DNA from: Anaerolineales bacterium
Lineage (GTDB): Bacteria > Chloroflexota > Anaerolineae > Anaerolineales > UBA4823
NCBI GenBank assembly: GCA_046260155.1
Contig: JBJYXV010000091.1
Coordinates: 45,542-109,541 of the forward strand
Reading direction: 5' to 3'
DNA: 64,000 bases
This document shows, piece after piece, positions 315-64,000 of the stretch. The position numbers and the translations under genes are program-made. Each line of letters starts with the position of its first letter. Within the stretch, counting starts at the first letter, position 1. Under the pieces are notes generated by a model. It had not been told where the DNA came from, did not search any database, and saw nothing but the letters and a program-made list of their open reading frames with translations.

Positions 315-827
315 TCAGCTCAGGGATTGGTCACAAATTGAATAAAAACCGCAATTCAAACACCGATTTTTCGATTGGTGGGACCTATCCACTGATCGCT
401 GTTTTCCAAGCGTGCGTATCTCCCGAATGAGTTGGATAACACTGTGCTCCAACTCTGGTGTGTAGTCGACAGCGATATCCTGGTTGGAATAATGTAATAT
501 ACCGTATTCTGGACGTATACCATAGGCTTGCTCGATGAGCAAGCAGTAAGCAGCTAATTGGTAGATGTGGGAATCATAAGGTTTCGATCTTGCGCGTCCA
601 GATTTTACTTCTACTGGTATTAAGCCATTTTTAGTTTCGACTATAAAATCTGGCTTACCAGTTAAATTGTAGGTGGGATCATATAATGGCGTCTCGATTT
701 TTCCCCACTCGCTATGATCGGTATAGATTAATCTCCCGGATGGTAATCCGCTGGAACGCCATTGGCGAGTGGATATCCAATAAAGAATGATCCCCAGAAC
801 TAGCAGGACAACGACCAGGTAAGGCAT
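315..827 (-). CDS. Cas4-like PD-(D/E)XK nuclease, C-terminal catalytic fragment with N-terminal TM helix
   Basis: The internal ATG at 827 (MPYLVVVLLVLGIILYWI) starts a hydrophobic helix. Downstream are GKPDFIVE (motif II), IPVEVKSG (ExK), YQLAAY (QxxxY) and the C-terminal Cys triad CLNCGFYSIC. The long ORF to 923 overlaps the upstream ORF in another frame. Confidence 0.7.
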   Translation of the reverse strand: MPYLVVVLLVLGIILYWISTRQWRSSGLPSGRLIYTDHSEWGKIETPLYDPTYNLTGKPDFIVETKNGLIPVEVKSGRARSKPYDSHIYQLAAYCLLIEQAYGIRPEYGILHYSNQDIAVDYTPELEHSVIQLIREIRTLGKQRSVDRSHQSKNRCLNCGFYSICDQSLS

Positions 828-831
828 TGGA

Positions 832-1068
832 TTATATGAGTTTGCCAGCAAGGTAAACAGCAAGCAAAACAATGGCAGCCATGAACAACCCGTATGCGAT
901 GGTGCGCAGGCACCCGCTGACAATCGCTTTGCGGGAATTTTGCAGGTGGATTCTTGTTCCCGCAGCCAGCTCTCGTTGATTTTCAGGGATATGACCCTTC
1001 CGTTGGTACCACCATGCCCGTCTGCAATAGAGGTATGTACCGATTTCGGAGGCTCGAATCGTGCTCAC
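832..1068 (-). CDS. Cas4-like N-terminal fragment (first Fe-S cysteine) with C-terminal TM helix
   Basis: IRASEIGTYLYCRRAWWYQ...GTRIH resembles the Cas4/DUF83 N-terminal helix with its conserved Cys. The C-terminus IAYGLFMAAIVLLAVYLAGKLI is hydrophobic. The GTG start overlaps the translin stop (GTGA). Confidence 0.55.
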   Translation of the reverse strand: MSTIRASEIGTYLYCRRAWWYQRKGHIPENQRELAAGTRIHLQNSRKAIVSGCLRTIAYGLFMAAIVLLAVYLAGKLI

Positions 1069-1700
1069 GATTTTTCCATTCTTTTTTCCAGCTGGGCCAT
1101 CGATTTTTCAAGGTGCTGCTGCTGTAAGCTGAGTGTGATATCACCCCTGGTCCGTTCGAGAATACTTCGTGCAATATCTGTCTGGCGGCGAATTCCCCCG
1201 GTGATTGCATTGGGGTAATCCATAGTGATCAATACTGCAAAAATATCATCCATATGCTGGAGAAGGTTTTCTGCTTCTTCAGAATATCCCAGGCGAAGAA
1301 TATCCAGGCAGCGGCGGCGAAATTCTCCCACTGATTCAGCTAAACCATTCAGGTACGCCGGATTCTCGAGTTTCAACTCCTGGGGTGTCGGCAGTTCTTT
1401 CTCAGTAATTAACGCATAGACGATATTGGCTTCTGCAAATTCCTTGAGGGCATCCTGGGTGTATCCTGCATAATAAAGATCTGGGAAGACATTCAATTCT
1501 GCCTGCAAGGATGCAACAATATTCGAAGCGCTTTCTAATTGATGCTCAGCTGCATCGAAATCGTCCCTGTGCACAGAGCGGATTGCATTCGCGCAGTGAC
1601 GGGTAAGCGTCCGCGCCTGTGAAAGGGCATGATCGCGCGCAGCGGTGCGAGTTTCAAATGCCAGGTGAATGCCTTCAGCAATCTCCGATAATTTATCCAT
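1065..1700 (-). CDS. Translin/TRAX family protein
   Basis: The 211-aa all-helical protein has a layout typical of archaeal/bacterial translin homologues: ...RDHALSQARTLTRHCANAIRSVHRDDFDAAEHQL..., YYAGYTQDALKEFAEANIVYAL, YLNGLAESVGEFRRRCLD. The family assignment is from memory of the family pattern. Confidence 0.65.
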   Translation of the reverse strand: MDKLSEIAEGIHLAFETRTAARDHALSQARTLTRHCANAIRSVHRDDFDAAEHQLESASNIVASLQAELNVFPDLYYAGYTQDALKEFAEANIVYALITEKELPTPQELKLENPAYLNGLAESVGEFRRRCLDILRLGYSEEAENLLQHMDDIFAVLITMDYPNAITGGIRRQTDIARSILERTRGDITLSLQQQHLEKSMAQLEKRMEKS

Positions 1701-1703
1701 GTT

Positions 1704-2042
1704 TTATTCCTCTGGTGGTTCTTCTGTGGGTGAGCCCGGGCGGAAGAGATAATCTGCTAATGATGATGAACCCGGGACATTAATATTTCCAAAAGAGGCT
1801 TCATAACGCTTGATATTTTCACCAAGCGCATGGAAGAGCAGCTTGGCTCCCAGAGGGGACATCACGATCCGGGTGCGAACTTTGGCAGGTTTCGTCCCGG
1901 GTAATAAGTGGGCAAAATCGAAGACCATCTCTGAAGGTGAGTGCGCGATTCTGACCAGGTTGATGTAGATTGCCTCAATATCCTCAGGGACTATCATGGG
2001 CGGCAATTTCGCTGGTTTTGGGCTCTCAGGCTGGTTGGACAT
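1704..2042 (-). CDS. DUF3467 family protein
   Basis: IYINLVRIAHSPSEMVFDFAHLL...RIVMSPLGAKLLFHALGENIKRYEASFGNI matches the remembered DUF3467 pattern. The likely start is ATG 2042 (MSNQPE), preceded by AGGAG. The ORF-track start at 2087 would run into the terminator. Confidence 0.6.
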   Translation of the reverse strand: MSNQPESPKPAKLPPMIVPEDIEAIYINLVRIAHSPSEMVFDFAHLLPGTKPAKVRTRIVMSPLGAKLLFHALGENIKRYEASFGNINVPGSSSLADYLFRPGSPTEEPPEE

Positions 2043-2088
2043 GGCTATCTCCTGATCGAAAATGGGTGGTAAATTAGTCATTTCCAAG

Positions 2089-2122
2089 GCAAAACAGGCG
2101 GAGTGTTTCCTTACCCTCCGCC
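2089..2122 (-). terminator. Intrinsic terminator downstream of ssb
   Basis: The minus strand reads GGCGGAG-12 nt loop-CTCCGCC followed by TGTTTTGC. Confidence 0.5.
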
Positions 2123-2212
2123 CTGGATTTTGCTCTGCTTAAATTTAAGGTGCTCAAGGTTGAAAGATAGTAATGTTGCCTGGTGTGGAATTTGTCACTA
2201 AAACTTGAGGAG

Positions 2213-2629
2213 TTAGAAGGGAATATCCTCGGGTTCCGCTAATCCGGGCGAATCGTCTGCTGAATAACCACCTTCACTTTCACTTCGGGGAGTAAGAAAT
2301 CTCACTACTTCGCCTGTGATTTCATAACTTGCACCAGAGGTTCCATCCTGTCGTGTATATACTCTTGGACCCCCCGTGTCTTTATCAGGATTTAGCCTTC
2401 CTTCAACAAGAACCCGTCTTCCCTTTTTTAGATACTGGTTGCACACTTCTGCGGTTTTACCCCAGGTAGAAATCCGAAACCAGGTTGTTTCATCTACCTG
2501 GTTGCCGTCTGAGGTAGTGTACCTGCGGCTTGTTGCCACATTGAAATTTGTGACCGCTTGACCCGAAGGTGTATACCGCATTTCAGGGTCGCCACCAAGA
2601 TTGCCGATGATGATAATTTTTTGGTACAT
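2213..2629 (-). CDS. ssb: Single-stranded DNA-binding protein
   Basis: The OB-fold N-terminus is MYQKIIIIGNLGGDPEMRYTPSG...TWFRISTWGK. The acidic tail ends in the canonical DIPF. Confidence 0.9.
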   Translation of the reverse strand: MYQKIIIIGNLGGDPEMRYTPSGQAVTNFNVATSRRYTTSDGNQVDETTWFRISTWGKTAEVCNQYLKKGRRVLVEGRLNPDKDTGGPRVYTRQDGTSGASYEITGEVVRFLTPRSESEGGYSADDSPGLAEPEDIPF

Positions 2630-2771
2630 TGGGATTCTCCTTTCAATTCAGTGAGCGGAAAAGGTTTTAGTTACGGACGTACGTCGCCCGTGAATCGCAC
2701 GTGTGACACTCACCGATAACCAGAACAATTGTACACTAAATTTTGCGACAGATAAAGGTATACCAATCAAA

Positions 2772-3605
2772 TTACTCGTTGCGGAATTGGAGGCAGTAAT
2801 GGTGAAAGGTATTGCTGACCCAGGCATTTCCTAACCCATAAGGCGCGAGTCGAATGTCGTCCTGGCACCATATCTTTTCATCTTTCAGGGTGTAGATATC
2901 ACCCAATTTGCTGGCCAGATCCCAGGCAAGGGGATAGATTTTTCCACCCTTCTTAATATTTTTCACGATAATTGTAATATATCCTCGCTCTACAAGATAG
3001 GGTTTTATCGCACGATAGATGCCAACTAACTTCTCAAGGAACAAATCATAATCGTGGATGTTGCCAAGATCTTCTGGATCATCGGAATACTGCAGATCTA
3101 ATTCTTGAGAATTACGCCGTTTTTGTTGGGTTTTGGCGCCTTTTGCGTGCAGCATGTCCCAATAGGGTGGTGAGGTGATCACATAATGAACCGGAGGAAA
3201 TTCATACTCAGCGAAGTATTCCGGGATATCGAGCGCATTCCCAAGAATCACATGGCAGTTCAGGTTCTCGGCACCTTCCCCTAGTCTTTCCCGCTCCTCT
3301 TGCACAGCCTGGTTGGTGATATCGATGTAAGCCTGGTTGAGCTCAATGCCAATGCTGTTGCGACCTGAACGCAAAGCCGCTACCAGGCTGCTGCCGGTAC
3401 CTACCATGGGGTCTAATATGGTCTGGCCTTCCTTGGTGAAGAATTCTATAAATTCTTGAGCCAATGTTTCCGGGAATTTCGCCGGATGGCGAATTACCCC
3501 CTTCTTGCGGGCAGGGGGAGCATGGATGAACCATGATTTCTGAAACTTCAGCCATGATTTTGGATCGAGGTTATTTAATCGGTTTTTAAAGGGGCGTTTA
3601 GCCAT
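2772..3605 (-). CDS. DNA methyltransferase (N4-C/N6-A family, SPPY catalytic motif), no cognate nuclease seen
   Basis: HPAKFPETL and the AdoMet motif I ILDPMVGTGSSLVAA lie in the N-terminal half. GNALDIP...VITSPPYWD and RAIKPYLVERGYITIIV lie in the C-terminal half. Confidence 0.8.
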   Translation of the reverse strand: MAKRPFKNRLNNLDPKSWLKFQKSWFIHAPPARKKGVIRHPAKFPETLAQEFIEFFTKEGQTILDPMVGTGSSLVAALRSGRNSIGIELNQAYIDITNQAVQEERERLGEGAENLNCHVILGNALDIPEYFAEYEFPPVHYVITSPPYWDMLHAKGAKTQQKRRNSQELDLQYSDDPEDLGNIHDYDLFLEKLVGIYRAIKPYLVERGYITIIVKNIKKGGKIYPLAWDLASKLGDIYTLKDEKIWCQDDIRLAPYGLGNAWVSNTFHHYCLQFRNE

Positions 3606-29016: not shown

Positions 29017-30078
29017 TCAAAACTGCTCTAAAAAGCGGACATCATTTGCCCAGAAGTAGCGGATATCCTCGATACGATAGCGCAGCATAGCAATACGTTC
29101 TGGCCCAATCCCGAAGGCAAATCCAGTATAGATTTCAGGATCATAACCACCGTTCTGAAGCACAATCGGATGAACCATCCCGCAACCTAAAATCTCCAGC
29201 CATCCCGTCCGTTTGCAGACTGAACATCCCTGGCCACCACAGACAAAACATTCGATATCCACTTCCGCACTGGGTTCAGTAAATGGGAAATGAGAAGCCC
29301 TGAAGCGAGAGCGAACTTGCATTCCGAATATGCGTTTGTTGAAATCACTCAAGGTGCCTTTAAGATCACTGAAAGTGATCTCCTTTCCAACCGCCAGGCC
29401 TTCGACCTGGGTGAACTGGGATTCTGAGCGTGTATTGACCTGCTCATGGCGATAACACATCCCAGGTAGGATGATGCGAATCGAGGGAGGATCCTGGGGG
29501 TTTCCAGCAGAATACTCTCGCATTGCATGAATTTGTCCGGGCGAGGTATGTGTGCGCAGCAGAACCGGGTTATCAACATCATGATCGCCCTCTATATAAA
29601 ACGAATCCTGCATGTCACGAGCCGGATGGTGAGGGGGGAAATTAAGCAGTTGAAAATTAAATTCATCTGTTTCAACATCCGGAGATTGGTAGACCTGGAA
29701 TCCCATATCCGCAAATACCTGATAAATTACCCTTAAAGTTTGCGTTATCGGATGCAGGCGCCCAATTTTAAGCGTCCTGCCGGGTAATGTCACGTCTAAT
29801 TGTTCTGTTTCCAAAGAGCGCTGCAGCTCTTCCTGTTGGAGCAGATCTTCCTTTTCAGCAAGTTTCTTTTCAAGCAATTGTTTCACTTGATTGGCCTGCC
29901 TCCCAATAGCTGGTCTGTCTTCCTTTGGTAGCTGACCCAATTGGTCGAAAATGCCCATCAATTTAGAACTGCGTCCCAGGTATTCTATGCGCCAATTCTC
30001 CAGTGAATCCGCATGATCCACTTTTTCCAAAGCGGCTAGCGCATCCTGTTGAATGCTTTCTAATTGTTGTAATGCCAT
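29017..30078 (-). CDS. pheS: Phenylalanyl-tRNA synthetase alpha subunit
   Basis: HPITQTLRVIYQVF, PPHHPARDMQDSFY and FRASHFPFTEPSAEVDI. The start is placed at MALQQLE (ATG 30078) behind GGAGG. The ORF-track start at 30114 would lie inside the leader terminator. Confidence 0.95.
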   Translation of the reverse strand: MALQQLESIQQDALAALEKVDHADSLENWRIEYLGRSSKLMGIFDQLGQLPKEDRPAIGRQANQVKQLLEKKLAEKEDLLQQEELQRSLETEQLDVTLPGRTLKIGRLHPITQTLRVIYQVFADMGFQVYQSPDVETDEFNFQLLNFPPHHPARDMQDSFYIEGDHDVDNPVLLRTHTSPGQIHAMREYSAGNPQDPPSIRIILPGMCYRHEQVNTRSESQFTQVEGLAVGKEITFSDLKGTLSDFNKRIFGMQVRSRFRASHFPFTEPSAEVDIECFVCGGQGCSVCKRTGWLEILGCGMVHPIVLQNGGYDPEIYTGFAFGIGPERIAMLRYRIEDIRYFWANDVRFLEQF

Positions 30079-30084
30079 TCGAAC

Positions 30085-30373
30085 CTCCAAGGATAATAAA
30101 AACATCCCGTCCATCTAAGGGACGGGATGTGATGCCCGTGGTACCACCCAAATTGACCGAAAATTCTGGTCCACTCAACCCCAACAGCAAGCGAATGCGA
30201 TTGGTCTCCCTTTCTAACGCTGGGAATGCGGCCCAAACTACAGGATCAAGATTGATCTTTCCCTTGGGCAGCTCAGGAGGGAACTTCTGCCAAGTTTAGC
30301 TGGGCCGGGGTTTCAGTCAATGCCCCTGGCTTCCCTGTCAGATTCCGTTGGCTTACTTTCCTCCATCGAGGCT
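30085..30373 (-). promoter_or_regulatory. T-box riboswitch leader (Phe specifier candidate UUC) with intrinsic terminator
   Basis: The minus strand reads ...GATGGAGGAAAGTAAGCC...AGGGAAG...GCAGAAG-TTC-CC (UUC at 30283..30281). The T-box sequence AATTTGGGTGGTACCACGGG is at 30154..30135. The terminator is CATCCCGTCC-7 nt-GGACGGGATG plus TTTTTATT (30129..30095). Confidence 0.8.
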
Positions 30374-30379
30374 GTTCAA

Positions 30380-60280: not shown

Positions 60281-61558
60281 CTATTCAATATTGCCTCCTA
60301 GAGAGACAACAAAAACATCATAATAAGTACCTGCGCCAAATCCATCGAACATAATATGGTCACCAGGTTTCAAGAGGGGCAGCTCCCGTAAAAAGGCAAT
60401 CATATTGGATGCCGCGCTGACGTTACCAAATTCCTTTATTACCCACGGCATGGGGAGATCAATGCCGATTTTACTGAGGTTTTTTTGTTTTAATAGATTA
60501 ATTTTCTTGTTAGCGTGGTGAACGATTGTAACCTCGATTGTTTTACCGATTGTGCCCAGCTGCTCCATTCGATTGCGGTAGGCTTCGTACACTCTCTGGA
60601 CTATATCAACGCCATTGCGGACAAAGAGCTTTACCATCCCCATGGGTCCTGCCATGATCACAGGCAGTCCATTGGCGGGTTCGTTCATTAATCCAGCAAA
60701 GCGTAAGCTGTGGGGATTAATTTCGGTCACCTCGACCATTGAGTCTTCATGAACCTGATGCGAGTGGGGATAATACATATGCACGGCAAGGACTCCCTGC
60801 TCGTCATAAACTTCTTGCGTGTCTCCAACCAGGAATTCCATGGATTTACCCGGGATTAACCCGATAATCCCTGCACCGTTTCCAAAGAGCTGCAGAGCAT
60901 TCTTGTCGTAGGATTTTTGAACGAAGCGGCTTAATCCCTCAAAACCACCAACCAGCACTTTTTTCCCTTTCAGTATCTGGGCGAGATTGAACCTGGATCG
61001 ATGGTTGTAGCTGAGATCGGGATTTAATACCAGGTGTAAAGCGCCAGCAGAACCATCACAGGCTTTATGAACACTGACCTTTAACGCGTCCTCACGAATT
61101 CCAGCCTGGGACGCGATCTCTTCTGTAAAATTATCACAAACTGGTCCACTGGAGCCGATCAAGACTGCATCAACTTCTCCTGGATCCCATCCAGATGCTT
61201 TGGCAGCCTCCTCTATTAAGCGAGCACCAACCACGGTTTCGATTTTCCTGTGGTCCTCATCTGAAATACCAGTTAAATGCTGACGGTGGATGAAGCCCAA
61301 GGGTTCTAAATTCATGCGCTCATTCTCATCCAGCGGAGAACCGAAGGATTGGTAGACCAATTCTGGAAGGGTGGAATTATCGTAGCTTTTTCCCCATGTC
61401 CCATATACGCCACCAATGCCGATCTTGGGATTGGAGATGCTTTCATAACCAAATGGAATACCCCCCCCAATCGGGATGTCCACCATATGTACCTGTGGTC
61501 GTTCATAAAATGGAAGCACTGGTATGGCTTCTTCCTTTGATGTTCCTTTATGTGTCAT
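60281..61558 (-). CDS. KAS III (FabH)-like thiolase-fold enzyme with N-terminal extension
   Basis: The candidate Cys-His-Asn triad is VHKACDGSAGAL, IVHHANKKI and FGNVSAASNM. The protein is 425 aa against about 325 aa for FabH. Confidence 0.7.
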   Translation of the reverse strand: MTHKGTSKEEAIPVLPFYERPQVHMVDIPIGGGIPFGYESISNPKIGIGGVYGTWGKSYDNSTLPELVYQSFGSPLDENERMNLEPLGFIHRQHLTGISDEDHRKIETVVGARLIEEAAKASGWDPGEVDAVLIGSSGPVCDNFTEEIASQAGIREDALKVSVHKACDGSAGALHLVLNPDLSYNHRSRFNLAQILKGKKVLVGGFEGLSRFVQKSYDKNALQLFGNGAGIIGLIPGKSMEFLVGDTQEVYDEQGVLAVHMYYPHSHQVHEDSMVEVTEINPHSLRFAGLMNEPANGLPVIMAGPMGMVKLFVRNGVDIVQRVYEAYRNRMEQLGTIGKTIEVTIVHHANKKINLLKQKNLSKIGIDLPMPWVIKEFGNVSAASNMIAFLRELPLLKPGDHIMFDGFGAGTYYDVFVVSLGGNIE

Positions 61559-61820
61559 TACCGCTCCTTGAACATTCAGCCAAAACGCCTGGCTTTTTTA
61601 AACCAAGCACGATTATAAATTAATCTCCATCTTTATGATGGTCTAGAATCGAATTCTCTGGCAGTACTAATATTTCTACCTAAATCGATTGAAGGCGATG
61701 GCAATTGAAATAGATTCGGTTTGCGATTATAAGAACACCGAAGAACCGTTCGAGTGACGGATGAGAATTTGTTTTTTGGATCTAAATCGGTATAAACTCA
61801 AAAGAATTGCATAGCATCTT

Positions 61821-61856
61821 AAAACAAAAATCCCTGGGGCCTGGCTATTCCCAGGG
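61821..61856 (-). terminator. Intrinsic terminator after the Rca-like gene
   Basis: Minus strand: CCCTGGG-11 nt-CCCAGGG followed by ATTTTTGTTTT. Confidence 0.6.
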
Positions 61857-61886
61857 TATTTCGTTTTTGTTGGAATATAAATTACA

Positions 61887-62810
61887 TCAACCTTGCCCTT
61901 GGCGCCAATTTACCAAGCTTGAAGCTTGCAGGTGGTTGATCAGCTTGCCAGAACGGGCTAATTGAATGCCTTTTTCGAGGACTCTTTCGTAATATATCTT
62001 TGAAGAGAGATCAGGCTCGAATCCTCTCAGTATGCTGTCTACTGTCTTATCCAGGCCATACTCTTCAACCTCATCCCATAAGTCCTCATCCAGAAGATTA
62101 GCACGCAGATGAGAAAAGAAAGCCACCGGTAAGAATTTAATTTGTTCAGGGAGTTCTCCCAACAGCTTTTCATTCAACTCCACGACCAGGTTGTAACACT
62201 CCTGCTCGGTGAGTTCGGGGAAGATGGCTTGAATGATCTCGGCTTTCTCTTCAATGGTGGGGATCCACTCGAAGGCAGACATCCTGCCTGCCCTTACCAG
62301 CGGGTTATACAGCTTTGTAAAGTCATTCCCGGTGATGATGATCGGTATGCGTGTGGTTTCTTTCCCTTCGACCAGGGATGGATAGTCAACCAGGTGCATC
62401 AATTCTCCGAACACATTAATCTGGTTAATGGTGTGTTTCTCATCCGTTCCCCAGGTCCCCAGTCCGGTATCAACATCATTGACCAGAACGACCGCTAAAC
62501 TCGCACCACCACTGCGAATACTTTCGCTGGCTTTGATGTAAGTGTCGCGGATGAATGCTGATGGGTGGCCTGCAATTGGATTATCGAGCTGACCTCCTGA
62601 TACCAGAAAGCGTTTCACGCCCATGTTCTTTAAGATGTGTTCGCATTGGTAAGTCTTTCCCTCGCCAGAAGGTCCATGAATTCCGAGCAGGAGTGGGACT
62701 TGGGCTTCAACTCGTTTTAACAGGTTTTTGAGTATATGCAAGGAAACGACCTGCTGGAATCTTGGTGAGATAAAGATTTCTTCTTCTGCTCTTTGTCTGA
62801 TAAGTGCCAT
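61887..62810 (-). CDS. AAA+ ATPase of the green-type Rubisco activase (Rca)-like clade
   Basis: Walker A lies in VPLLLGIHGPSGEGKTYQCE. The pore-loop region is SGGQLDNPIAGHPSAFIRDTY and Walker B is VLVNDVDTGLG. TRIPIIITGNDFTKLYNPLVRAGRMSAFEWIPT closely parallels plant Rca segments as I remember them. Confidence 0.75.
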   Translation of the reverse strand: MALIRQRAEEEIFISPRFQQVVSLHILKNLLKRVEAQVPLLLGIHGPSGEGKTYQCEHILKNMGVKRFLVSGGQLDNPIAGHPSAFIRDTYIKASESIRSGGASLAVVLVNDVDTGLGTWGTDEKHTINQINVFGELMHLVDYPSLVEGKETTRIPIIITGNDFTKLYNPLVRAGRMSAFEWIPTIEEKAEIIQAIFPELTEQECYNLVVELNEKLLGELPEQIKFLPVAFFSHLRANLLDEDLWDEVEEYGLDKTVDSILRGFEPDLSSKIYYERVLEKGIQLARSGKLINHLQASSLVNWRQGQG

Positions 62811-63348
62811 AGCGATATTCCTACCTAGTAACTATTTTGCCGACCTGTAGGATAATGCAAAGAATGGTGGATCGGGATAATATGTTTGAAAAAAAATATC
62901 CTACCTTTTTCTGCAGCCAATTATATAGCATTCCCGGATCGATATTCCATTACTTACGATTTAGTAAATTTTTATGCTGGAATAGGATCTCGAGAGTTAT
63001 TTCGACGAATCGCGGCTATTCTAACTTAGAAAACGAATAAAACTTGAGAATGTTACTGAAATCGTAAGGTGGATTAGCAGTGGAGTTCTTCCAATTTTAG
63101 ACCTTTAAATTTTATTCTGTTGTAATTACTCCTTCTTCAGCTCCCGATAAGTAATGAGGAATACTGCTCCCAATCGGCTTTTCTATGATATTGGCCCGTC
63201 CGCAGTAAATGACAAATATTGAAATTCCTGACCCACTGCTGCGCCAACCCTTCCTCTGCTATCCATATTCACCCTTGTTTTTTTCAACGTTTCCGGCAAC
63301 CCTTAACGCAAAACAAAATCGAGCAAGTACGTTATTACAAAGGTGTTT

Positions 63349-64000
63349 TCAGGTAGCCTCCATCACTTGTTCATCTGTTATTGTTTCTAGCAGCTGCTTA
63401 GCCACTTCGTTGTAGGTGCGCTCAGATCCTCTGGCATAGGCGCTGGCGTATGCTTCTGGTTTGAGCATCTTTTCAAGATCAGAGAGGGCTGTAGATGCGA
63501 CTTCGTTGATCGGGGTGGTGTTTGTGAAAGGCCGGTAAACACTGGTGGGGTCAGCAAGCACAGTCGCCAGCAGCTCAACTGCTTCCTTGTATTCACCTCG
63601 TTGTACCCATACCCTGGCAATCTTTGTCATCATACCAAGCATATCCCGAACCATGCCCATCCGCTCAGCGGCAGCCACACCCTCAATGAAGGCTGATTCA
63701 GCAGCTTCCAGCTTACCAGCGGCTAAATTAGCCTCTCCTAAACCCTCCAGCGAAACCATCGTTCCCCGTACGTAGGAAATCTCCTGGCAACGTGCAACCT
63801 GCTGGGTGTAGAGATCGATGGCATCGTCCGGACGATTTTCATGTGTGGAGATCATGGCCCGCACCCAGAGGTTCCAAACTGTCACCCAATACTCATCGAC
63901 CAGCCCCAGCTGTTTGGTAGCCTCGTCAGCGAATCTGGTAGCCCCGTCGAAGTCACCAATGACAACTGCAGCGAACCCACGCCAGTTGTTGAGCGATGCA
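63349..64000 (-). CDS. C-terminal TPR region of a larger protein (open to the right window edge)
   Basis: TPR-like helical repeats are present (LGEANLAAGKLEAAESAFIEG, RVWVQRGEYKEAVELLATVL). My own translation shows the frame stays open from 63886 to 64000 (ASLNNWRGFAAVVIGDFDGATRFADEATKQLGLVDEYW...). Confidence 0.6.
   Translation of the reverse strand, partial: ASLNNWRGFAAVVIGDFDGATRFADEATKQLGLVDEYWVTVWNLWVRAMISTHENRPDDAIDLYTQQVARCQEISYVRGTMVSLEGLGEANLAAGKLEAAESAFIEGVAAAERMGMVRDMLGMMTKIARVWVQRGEYKEAVELLATVLADPTSVYRPFTNTTPINEVASTALSDLEKMLKPEAYASAYARGSERTYNEVAKQLLETITDEQVMEAT

Follow-up and report, generated by a model that had tools for sequence, protein, structure and literature searches.

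The window analysed here is a 64,000-nucleotide stretch of contig JBJYXV010000091.1 (positions 45,542 to 109,541, forward strand) from the Anaerolineales bacterium assembly GCA_046260155.1, and towards its end lies a gene for an AAA+ ATPase of 307 residues that an initial annotation, made from the sequence alone, had likened to green-type Rubisco activase (Rca). The open reading frame (ORF) so annotated is present, and all the peptide strings quoted for it are contained in its product. As set out below, the protein belongs to a large Rca-like superfamily as a lineage distinct from Rca itself, and it probably acts on a client other than Rubisco. The gene and its immediate signals are as follows.

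61887..62810, minus strand: ORF for a standalone Rca-superfamily AAA+ ATPase, 307 aa, with an ATG start
9 nt 5′ of the ATPase ATG, minus strand: possible ribosome-binding site, AGGTAGGA
62811..63348, minus strand: AT-rich upstream spacer of 538 bp and 38% GC, presumably with the promoter
61821..61856, minus strand: hairpin and U-run resembling an intrinsic terminator, 31 nt past the ATPase stop codon

The gene looks monocistronic, as had been proposed on the strength of its own terminator and of a 0.54-kb AT-rich spacer upstream, and both of these features hold up. On the strand of the gene the hairpin has a folding energy of -21 kcal/mol (z = -2.83) and is followed by AUUUUUGUUUU; a pattern scanner for terminators did not report it, solely owing to its 11-nt loop. 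The GC content of the spacer compares with ~46% across the window, and a sigma-70 consensus scan of positions 61400..63500 gave 0 promoter-like sites where shuffled sequences give 4.0 ± 1.9, so that the ATPase promoter is not identifiable by the E. coli consensus. The gene is real and under strong purifying selection: compared with six orthologues, the proportion of nonsynonymous changes (pN) is 0.05–0.11 and that of synonymous changes (pS) 0.67–0.85 (pN/pS ~0.08–0.13), and for the closest orthologue (locus L014) pN is 0.054 and pS 0.667, with a ratio of nonsynonymous to synonymous rates (dN/dS) of ~0.03. An identical protein is encoded on 18 assembled contigs, including one of the NCBI metagenome-assembled genome (MAG) GCA_045888115.1, while relatives that are 83–92% identical occur in MAGs named Anaerolineales or Chloroflexota, including the closed 4.5-Mb chromosome CP070764.1. 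In public records these proteins are labelled ‘AAA family ATPase’, ‘hypothetical protein’ or, generically, for example ‘SpoVK/Ycf46/Vps4 family AAA+-type ATPase’.

Homology to Rubisco activase and placement in the family

The closest characterised family is green-type Rca, in sequence and in predicted fold. A phmmer search of the PDB returned tobacco Rca (3t15, E=9.5e-48, query residues 12–295), Nostoc Rca (6z1d, E=6e-46) and Arabidopsis Rca (4w5w, E=6e-44), with the next-best AAA+ protein, AFG2, at only 7e-5. Similarly, an AlphaFold2 model of the window protein, built on 31 homologues (pLDDT 83.8), finds its best structure matches by Foldseek in the Rca entries 6z1f, 6z1d, 4w5w and 3t15 (E 1e-16 to 1e-21, the best being 2.5e-21; TM up to 0.83, to Nostoc Rca 6z1f), and p97 comes next at E 1e-8. 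These searches bear out the homology over essentially the whole length that had been claimed from Rca strings, which agree with tobacco Rca as aligned here. They also bear out the claim of missing domains, as the alignment to Rca is confined to the AAA+ core and both the plant N-domain and the cyanobacterial small-subunit-like (SSUL) domain are absent. In Pfam, the generic AAA domain PF00004 (E=1.5e-11) is the sole domain above threshold, with the Rca helical domain PF21228 as a sub-threshold match, and a search of NCBIfam gave nothing meaningful.

Relatives of the window protein are many. A word-indexed search found 413 homologues at E≤1e-10, and HMMER, run exhaustively over 1.84 billion representatives, found 929 at E≤1e-3, 500 at E≤1e-10 and 163 at E≤1e-30, the last being clusters at 50% identity. 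Most matches of the exhaustive search are standalone proteins of 270–310 aa, and the N-extended plant-type sequences (455–477 aa) and the SSUL-bearing cyanobacterial ones first appear at ~1e-33 to 1e-44. Outside the Chloroflexota, named hosts include Pyrinomonadaceae, Longimicrobiaceae, Nitratifractor, Campylobacteraceae, Dactylosporangium and several filamentous cyanobacteria, the cyanobacterial relatives being a short paralogue of ~285 aa and not the SSUL-bearing Rca. There are no relatives among 72,556 plasmids, 50,697 phages and 2.9 million viral contigs. One family member, P0166 (1645 aa), combines an N-terminal region that by eye looks like a DExH/HrpA-like helicase with a C-terminal Rca-like AAA+ module (residues ~1369–1559, E=5e-44), which groups with the short family members in the tree described next.

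We built a neighbour-joining tree from 134 family members and two outgroups (269 columns, 100 bootstraps), and a bootstrap value of 94 sets the family apart from the outgroups. A single clade (22 representatives, bootstrap 83), nested within the short bacterial proteins, takes in every SSUL-bearing or N-extended sequence. The window protein is placed outside it, in an Anaerolineales clade (bootstrap 99) that in turn joins ~285-aa proteins of cyanobacteria and other phyla, here termed cassette-type for reasons given below, with bootstrap 96. Support at the deep nodes falls below 30, too low to name the sister group of Rca. The relationship first annotated, with Rca as the closest characterised family, stands. 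In this tree the window protein is no Rca orthologue but a paralogue lineage of a large Rca-like superfamily, as opposed to an Rca that has lost its context. The superfamily itself is large, bacterial and apparently undescribed, with bona fide Rca nested inside it; we found no paper on non-cyanobacterial relatives of green-type Rca.

Motor residues, docking elements and the case for a client other than Rubisco

The functional residues of green-type Rca are known from a cryo-electron microscopy and mutagenesis study of the Nostoc protein (NosRca), and comprise the pore loops PL1, PL2 and PL3 and the arginine fingers R169 and R172. Rubisco is docked through interface I, made up of V91/R92/G93 together with L244/N248/L250 of helix H9, and through interfaces II and III, made up of P140/Y143/D144 in the alpha4–beta4 loop, which reaches in between RbcL subunits and makes contact with RbcS; reactivation of Rubisco was abolished by triple mutations in any one of these NosRca interfaces. 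The N-terminal tail of RbcL, in which small and bulky residues alternate, is held in the Rca pore, and the tyrosine of PL2 (tobacco Y188, Nostoc Y116) is essential in plant Rca. These residues were transferred to the window protein via the family alignment, which gives the following equivalents.

62652..62675, minus strand: Walker A, GPSGEGKT, residues 46–53 (K52), invariant across the family
62562..62588, minus strand: pore loop 1 equivalent, LDNPIAGHP, residues 75–83, mapped onto NosRca PL1 residues 67–72, with the AG.P core common to Rca
62499..62519, minus strand: end of helix alpha3, IRSGGAS, in which G101/G102/A103 correspond to V91/R92/G93 of NosRca interface I
62469..62492, minus strand: Walker B, VVLVNDVD (D112, D114)
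62418..62468, minus strand: pore loop 2, TGLGTWGTDEKHTINQI, with His126 for Tyr (NosRca Y116) and Ile131 for its hydrogen-bonding partner Gln121
62352..62387, minus strand: short alpha4–beta4 connection, DYPSLVEGKETT, at the site of the 6-residue VQLPG(S/M)Y insertion of Rca
62280..62336, minus strand: sensor 1 ITGND (N162) and the two arginine fingers RAGRM (R173, R176), invariant in all groups

With K52, D112/D114, N162 and R173/R176 all present, the sequence of the ATPase motor is intact in the window protein. The elements that dock Rubisco, as read from the same alignment, are lost or altered. The alpha4–beta4 insertion VQLPG(S/M)Y, whose P140 and Y143 contact RbcL and RbcS, occurs in 22/22 representatives of the Rca clade and is absent from the window protein, from 9/9 members of the Anaerolineales clade, from 4/4 cassette-type proteins and from 92–94 of the 99 other short members, a gap that is visible in the raw HMMER alignments too. 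Since the FtsH outgroup likewise lacks it, the insertion is most plausibly a derived trait of Rca. At interface I, R92 is replaced by G102 and G93 by A103 (the Anaerolineales-clade consensus being G-E-C), where the Rca clade keeps G93 in 22/22 representatives and R/K92 in 14/22. In plant Rca, R92, G93 and N248 are conserved. Other docking changes in the window protein are the replacement of R83 by Ile and of N248 in helix H9 by Arg (R262). In PL2, H126 and I131 occur without exception in the clusters at least 80% identical (34/34), the Tyr/Gln pair that they replace being the commonest state in the superfamily (82/134 representatives); covariation between the Tyr116 and Gln121 equivalents showed no simple pattern. 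Elsewhere on the surface the family motifs ELMHLVDYP, FEWIPT and, at the C-terminus, SG.LINH are very strongly conserved.

The surroundings of the gene also lack Rubisco. A tblastn search with RbcL found no match in the 64-kb window, and Pfam scans of its ORFs of at least 100 aa found no RuBisCO, PRK or BMC domains, which confirms the earlier statement that the window holds no rbcL/rbcS, carboxysome or Calvin-cycle gene. The domains that these scans did find belong to housekeeping genes (PurA, ThrRS, IF3, L20, UvrA, PheST) and to heterotrophic metabolism (methylmalonyl-CoA mutase and epimerase, acyl-CoA dehydrogenase, ETF, an aminotransferase and an amino-acid ATP-binding cassette (ABC) transporter), in keeping with the chemoheterotrophic chromosome that had been pictured. 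We extended the RbcL search to 119 related loci, collected by exact-protein look-ups and from GTDB species genomes and JGI metagenomes with flanks of up to 10 kb on each side, and found no match in these and the window, 1.07 Mb in total.

Could the window protein nevertheless be a genuine activase, serving a form I′ or form IE Rubisco or a Rubisco-like protein encoded elsewhere and docking without the alpha4–beta4 loop or the interface I residues? Cyanobacterial rca is not always beside rbcL, and the RbcL search spans only the window and the locus flanks. The closest characterised relatives of the protein are Rca, the AG.P core of pore loop 1 is kept, and the Chloroflexota include form I′ and form IE Rubisco lineages; form I′ is without small subunits, so its activase might dispense with the loop that contacts RbcS. 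However, the protein lies outside the Rca clade, all three of the experimentally required docking elements are missing or changed, the PL2 tyrosine that plant Rca needs is His, and none of the 120 sequences searched contains RbcL. Moreover, the related clades are coupled to a HORMA-like gene (see below) and not to Rubisco, and they occur in lineages that are not known to use the Calvin cycle. We regard a true activase as very unlikely. An Rca-type remodeller outside a Rubisco context had been taken from the outset to imply a different client, and the deletion of the alpha4–beta4 loop, the changed interface I and the placement outside the Rca clade strengthen that suggestion. In our judgement, the window protein is likely to be a functional, standalone, pore-threading AAA+ remodeller with a client other than Rubisco.

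A three-gene cassette elsewhere in the family and the search for a partner

Among family members that are 35–57% identical to the window protein there is a compact recurring cassette, in the order C1 – ATPase – C0. The product of the upstream gene, C1, begins with a hydrophobic helix, followed by a coiled coil and a variable linker, and ends in an acidic C-terminus that is conserved. The end of C1 overlaps the ATPase start by 8–20 bp; the downstream gene, C0 (~175 aa), starts 1–3 bp past the ATPase stop. Counted over informative loci and binned by identity to the window protein, the two neighbours are distributed as follows.

At least 80% identity: C0 downstream in 0/28, C1 upstream in 0/29
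57–80% identity: C0 downstream in 0/17, C1 upstream in 2/25, both partial matches with no downstream flank
45–57% identity: C0 downstream in 26/29, C1 upstream in 16/26
Below 45% identity: C0 downstream in 13/18, C1 upstream in 5/17

C0 thus adjoins the ATPase at 39/47 informative loci below 57% identity and at 0/45 in the clade of the window. Examples of the cassette are L009:9463-11381, L012:9376-11397, L025–L029 and ~40 metagenome loci (for example L074:9280-12117), with hosts among cyanobacteria, Acidobacteriota, Gemmatimonadota, Actinomycetota and metagenome bacteria.

C0 has no sequence match in Pfam, PADLOC, PHROG or the PDB. An AlphaFold2 model of moderate quality (15 sequences, pLDDT 66, pTM 0.68) gives 48 PDB matches at E≤1e-3, all of them HORMA-domain proteins and all at TM 0.42–0.52, namely REV7, MAD2 and the bacterial HORMA proteins of the CdnC:HORMA:Trip13 system (6p8v, 6p8r, 6u7b, of which 6p8v is the bacterial HORMA:Trip13 complex); against a viral structure library the model found no match. 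At the level of fold, this suggests that C0 is a HORMA protein. The first ~14 residues of C0 are predicted to be disordered and show an alternation of small (A/G/S/T) and bulky residues with a period of 2, as in MARTVTYTKSITCTR, MATTHTRTVTQTFTR and MANAFTYTYSETRTRTE. The difference between the two registers has a mean of 0.75 in 26 distinct C0 tails and of 0.19 in 526 control proteins from the same loci, and is at least 0.7 in 73% of the C0 tails versus 1.7% of the controls. This pattern resembles that of the RbcL tail threaded by Rca, and the cassette ATPases retain Rca-like PL1 and PL2 sequences. By analogy, we infer that in the cassette systems an Rca-type ring may thread the N-tail of the HORMA-like C0, as TRIP13 does with HORMA proteins; no description of such a pairing of an Rca-type ATPase with HORMA was found in the literature searched.

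The cassettes vary in their detail. Some carry two C0 copies, in tandem (L073:1505-2770 and L074:10852-12117) or ~1.6 kb apart (L075:977-3749), which is reminiscent of the HORMA1/HORMA2 pairs in some cyclic-oligonucleotide-based anti-phage signalling systems (CBASS). In three cyanobacteria a divergent NACHT/STAND-like ATPase of ~460 aa precedes the cassette (L012:7760-9169, L027:7858-9231 and L028:7869-9260, all on the minus strand), and the copy at L012 has an HTH_VMAP-M9 domain and an adjoining IS110 transposase. An apparent fusion of the ATPase with C0 in Dactylosporangium proved to be a wrong-frame ORF in high-GC DNA, the two genes there being adjacent and unfused.

These cassettes raise the possibility that the window protein keeps an ancestral job, resetting a HORMA-like switch as TRIP13/Pch2 does, its partner genes having moved elsewhere in Anaerolineales genomes. 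Its clade is sister to the cassette-type ATPases with bootstrap 96, C0 predominates as the partner elsewhere in the family, and the motor and pore loop 1 are conserved. Yet neither C0 nor C1 was found nearby at the 45 loci of the clade, and the spacers of the window hold no remnant of either (best E=3.4). A profile search for C0, of limited sensitivity, returned 30 proteins, none with a Chloroflexota name and none on the 4.5-Mb chromosome CP070764, and no ORF in the window or its flanks encodes a C0-like alternating N-tail. The Tyr and Gln of PL2, which cassette-type members keep, are replaced in the clade of the window. We consider a displaced HORMA partner unlikely.

Other candidate partners in the clade of the window were examined and set aside. 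Neighbours with a C0-like N-tail were only sporadic, non-recurrent matches at internal start codons, and in the closest relatives no neighbour is conserved beyond plain synteny. The gene immediately downstream of the ATPase in the window (60281..61558, minus strand, 425 aa) lies beyond the terminator and a 328-bp spacer of 37% GC; its only match is ACP_syn_III_C, the C-terminal domain of KAS III (E=6e-9), and the product seems to be an atypical condensing enzyme with a thiolase fold. Among the genome loci that were clustered, this gene follows the ATPase only at 87% identity or more, with a whole downstream ABC-transporter block, and is missing at 83% identity (L018, L019), which we read as plain synteny. 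Some Anaerolineales-clade loci have four further genes just upstream of the ATPase, for a PrsW-like protease, a histidine kinase, a LuxR/GerE response regulator and C8 (116–164 aa, without Pfam match) (L010:7892-9562; L032:4301-9166; L039:1274-6301; L020:320-2549; L024:852-2066); these four are absent from the subclade of the window and from L011, L022 and L038, and were treated as lineage synteny. Other genes downstream of or near the ATPase vary across the clade, among them this kinase–regulator–small protein–PrsW neighbourhood, a 596-aa protein without Pfam match and an exonuclease-like gene; at L010:10891-11613, in a relative 65% identical, a 240-aa RNase_H_2/PolB-exonuclease-like gene overlaps the ATPase stop by 4 bp. 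A role in anti-phage defence or in a mobile element was likewise rejected, there being no PADLOC match, no meaningful PHROG match and no plasmid, phage or viral relatives.

Upstream of the ATPase, a gene at 63349..64000 (minus strand) runs past the edge of the window (L001:6468-9233) and encodes a STAND-type signalling protein of 921 aa, in which guanylate/adenylate-cyclase, AAA_22 and TPR_MalT domains are combined; two similar genes lie a few kb upstream of the ATPase copy on CP070764. Farther away in the window are a T-box leader (30115..30378, minus strand; 99.5 bits, E=1e-20) directly upstream of pheS (29017..30114) and then pheT, and a gene run at 315..3605 (minus strand) with a Cas4/DUF83-like nuclease domain protein, DUF3467, SSB and an N6/N4 DNA methylase.

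The variable gene contexts across the clade, the monocistronic arrangement with its own terminator and the PF00004 core would also suit a general stress or proteostasis unfoldase, that is, a generic chaperone of the classical AAA kind without a dedicated client. However, like Rca, the window protein is without the aromatic pore-loop 1 motif of promiscuous unfoldases, and it has neither a substrate-recognition N-domain nor a protease partner. The very strong conservation of family-specific surface motifs suggests instead a specific partner, and we give a generic unfoldase a slim chance at best.

Proposed mode of action, possible origin of Rubisco activase and comparison with known systems

If the remodeller that we favour works by analogy with the Nostoc Rca:Rubisco complex, it probably assembles into a ring (a hexamer), and an exposed terminal peptide of the client would be bound in the central pore, flanked by pore loops 1 and 2, where ATP hydrolysis would pull it and so alter the conformation of the client. 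The protein belongs to an Anaerolineales subclade that is derived within a wide bacterial family; in most of the other branches the ATPase appears to be translationally coupled to an upstream C1 and a downstream C0. This subclade has lost the C0/C1 adjacency and changed PL2 (Tyr to His, Gln to Ile), and its present client may be a new protein or an unlinked partner.

Several points weigh against this reading. Hexamer formation, pore threading and the identity of the client are argued from homologues, and the survey of neighbours yielded no client. The tree is by neighbour joining only, with low support at its deep nodes and one outgroup sequence entered by hand. The HORMA assignment of C0 is one of fold, from a model of moderate quality. 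To these may be added the form I′ and form IE lineages of the Chloroflexota, the dispensable RbcS-contacting loop that form I′ might allow, and the locus-wide scope of the RbcL search, all mentioned above.

In reviews, green-type Rca is said to have ‘originated in cyanobacteria’ or to have been recruited from chaperone machinery of an unspecified kind, and these bacterial relatives go unmentioned. We offer tentatively, as a scenario that is possible though less than probable, that green-type Rca is one specialised offshoot of a widespread family of short bacterial AAA+ proteins whose ancestral job was to reset a HORMA switch by threading its N-tail; that Rca applied the same recognition to the N-terminus of RbcL after gaining the alpha4–beta4 loop; and that the window gene represents a third state, in which the HORMA partner was dropped, PL2 rewired and a new client taken on. 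A single indel, the alpha4–beta4 loop, would then mark the passage to Rubisco docking, and a family with HORMA neighbours would hint at the origin of Rubisco activase. Besides TRIP13, the cassettes may also represent a second and independent case of a HORMA fold paired with an AAA+ remodeller, with a predicted tail-recognition code that is open to direct test. The window protein itself would be a natural ‘motor without docking surface’ variant, relevant to Rubisco engineering and to AAA+ mechanism, and for the biology of Anaerolineales it is a conserved and abundant gene, at present annotated only as ‘AAA family ATPase’.

Among known systems, the classical AAA proteins (p97/Cdc48, Rpt/PAN, FtsH) share the PF00004 core and provide the second-best structural matches, but fall ~40 orders of magnitude short of Rca in sequence searches, and unlike them the window protein has no aromatic pore loop 1, is predicted to form a single ring and lacks an N-domain. 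CbbX and the MoxR-type CbbQ/CbbO are likewise AAA+ proteins that remodel an enzyme, but they belong to different AAA+ clades, and neither is among the matches of the window protein in the PDB (E≤0.01), Pfam or NCBIfam. The resemblance to TRIP13/Pch2 with HORMA proteins, and to the Trip13-like Cap6 with Cap7/8 of CBASS (6p8v, 6f0x), concerns the wider family only: an AAA+ ring gene stands beside a HORMA-fold gene with a disordered N-tail, which suggests a conformational reset by tail threading. In contrast to TRIP13/Pch2, the ATPase is Rca-type and lacks the N-terminal substrate-recognition domain, and no TRIP13 is among its PDB sequence matches; in contrast to CBASS, the ATPase, C0 and C1 have no PADLOC match and the cassette holds no CD-NTase or recognisable effector; and the window gene has no HORMA neighbour, as is true of all 45 clade loci. 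From green-type Rca, finally, whether of plants or the cyanobacterial Rca-like/ALC form (Nostoc PCC 7120, 6z1d/6z1f), the window protein differs in its separate clade, in lacking the N-domain and SSUL, in the deletion of the alpha4–beta4 docking loop, in the changes at interface I and at the Asn of helix H9, in the replacement of Tyr/Gln by His/Ile in PL2 and in loci without Rubisco context. With it the protein shares the AAA+ alpha/beta plus helical subdomain fold at ~28–42% identity by various measures, a non-canonical Walker B (ND.D), sensor 1, two arginine fingers, a non-aromatic pore loop 1 with the AG.P core and a similar framework of pore loop 2.

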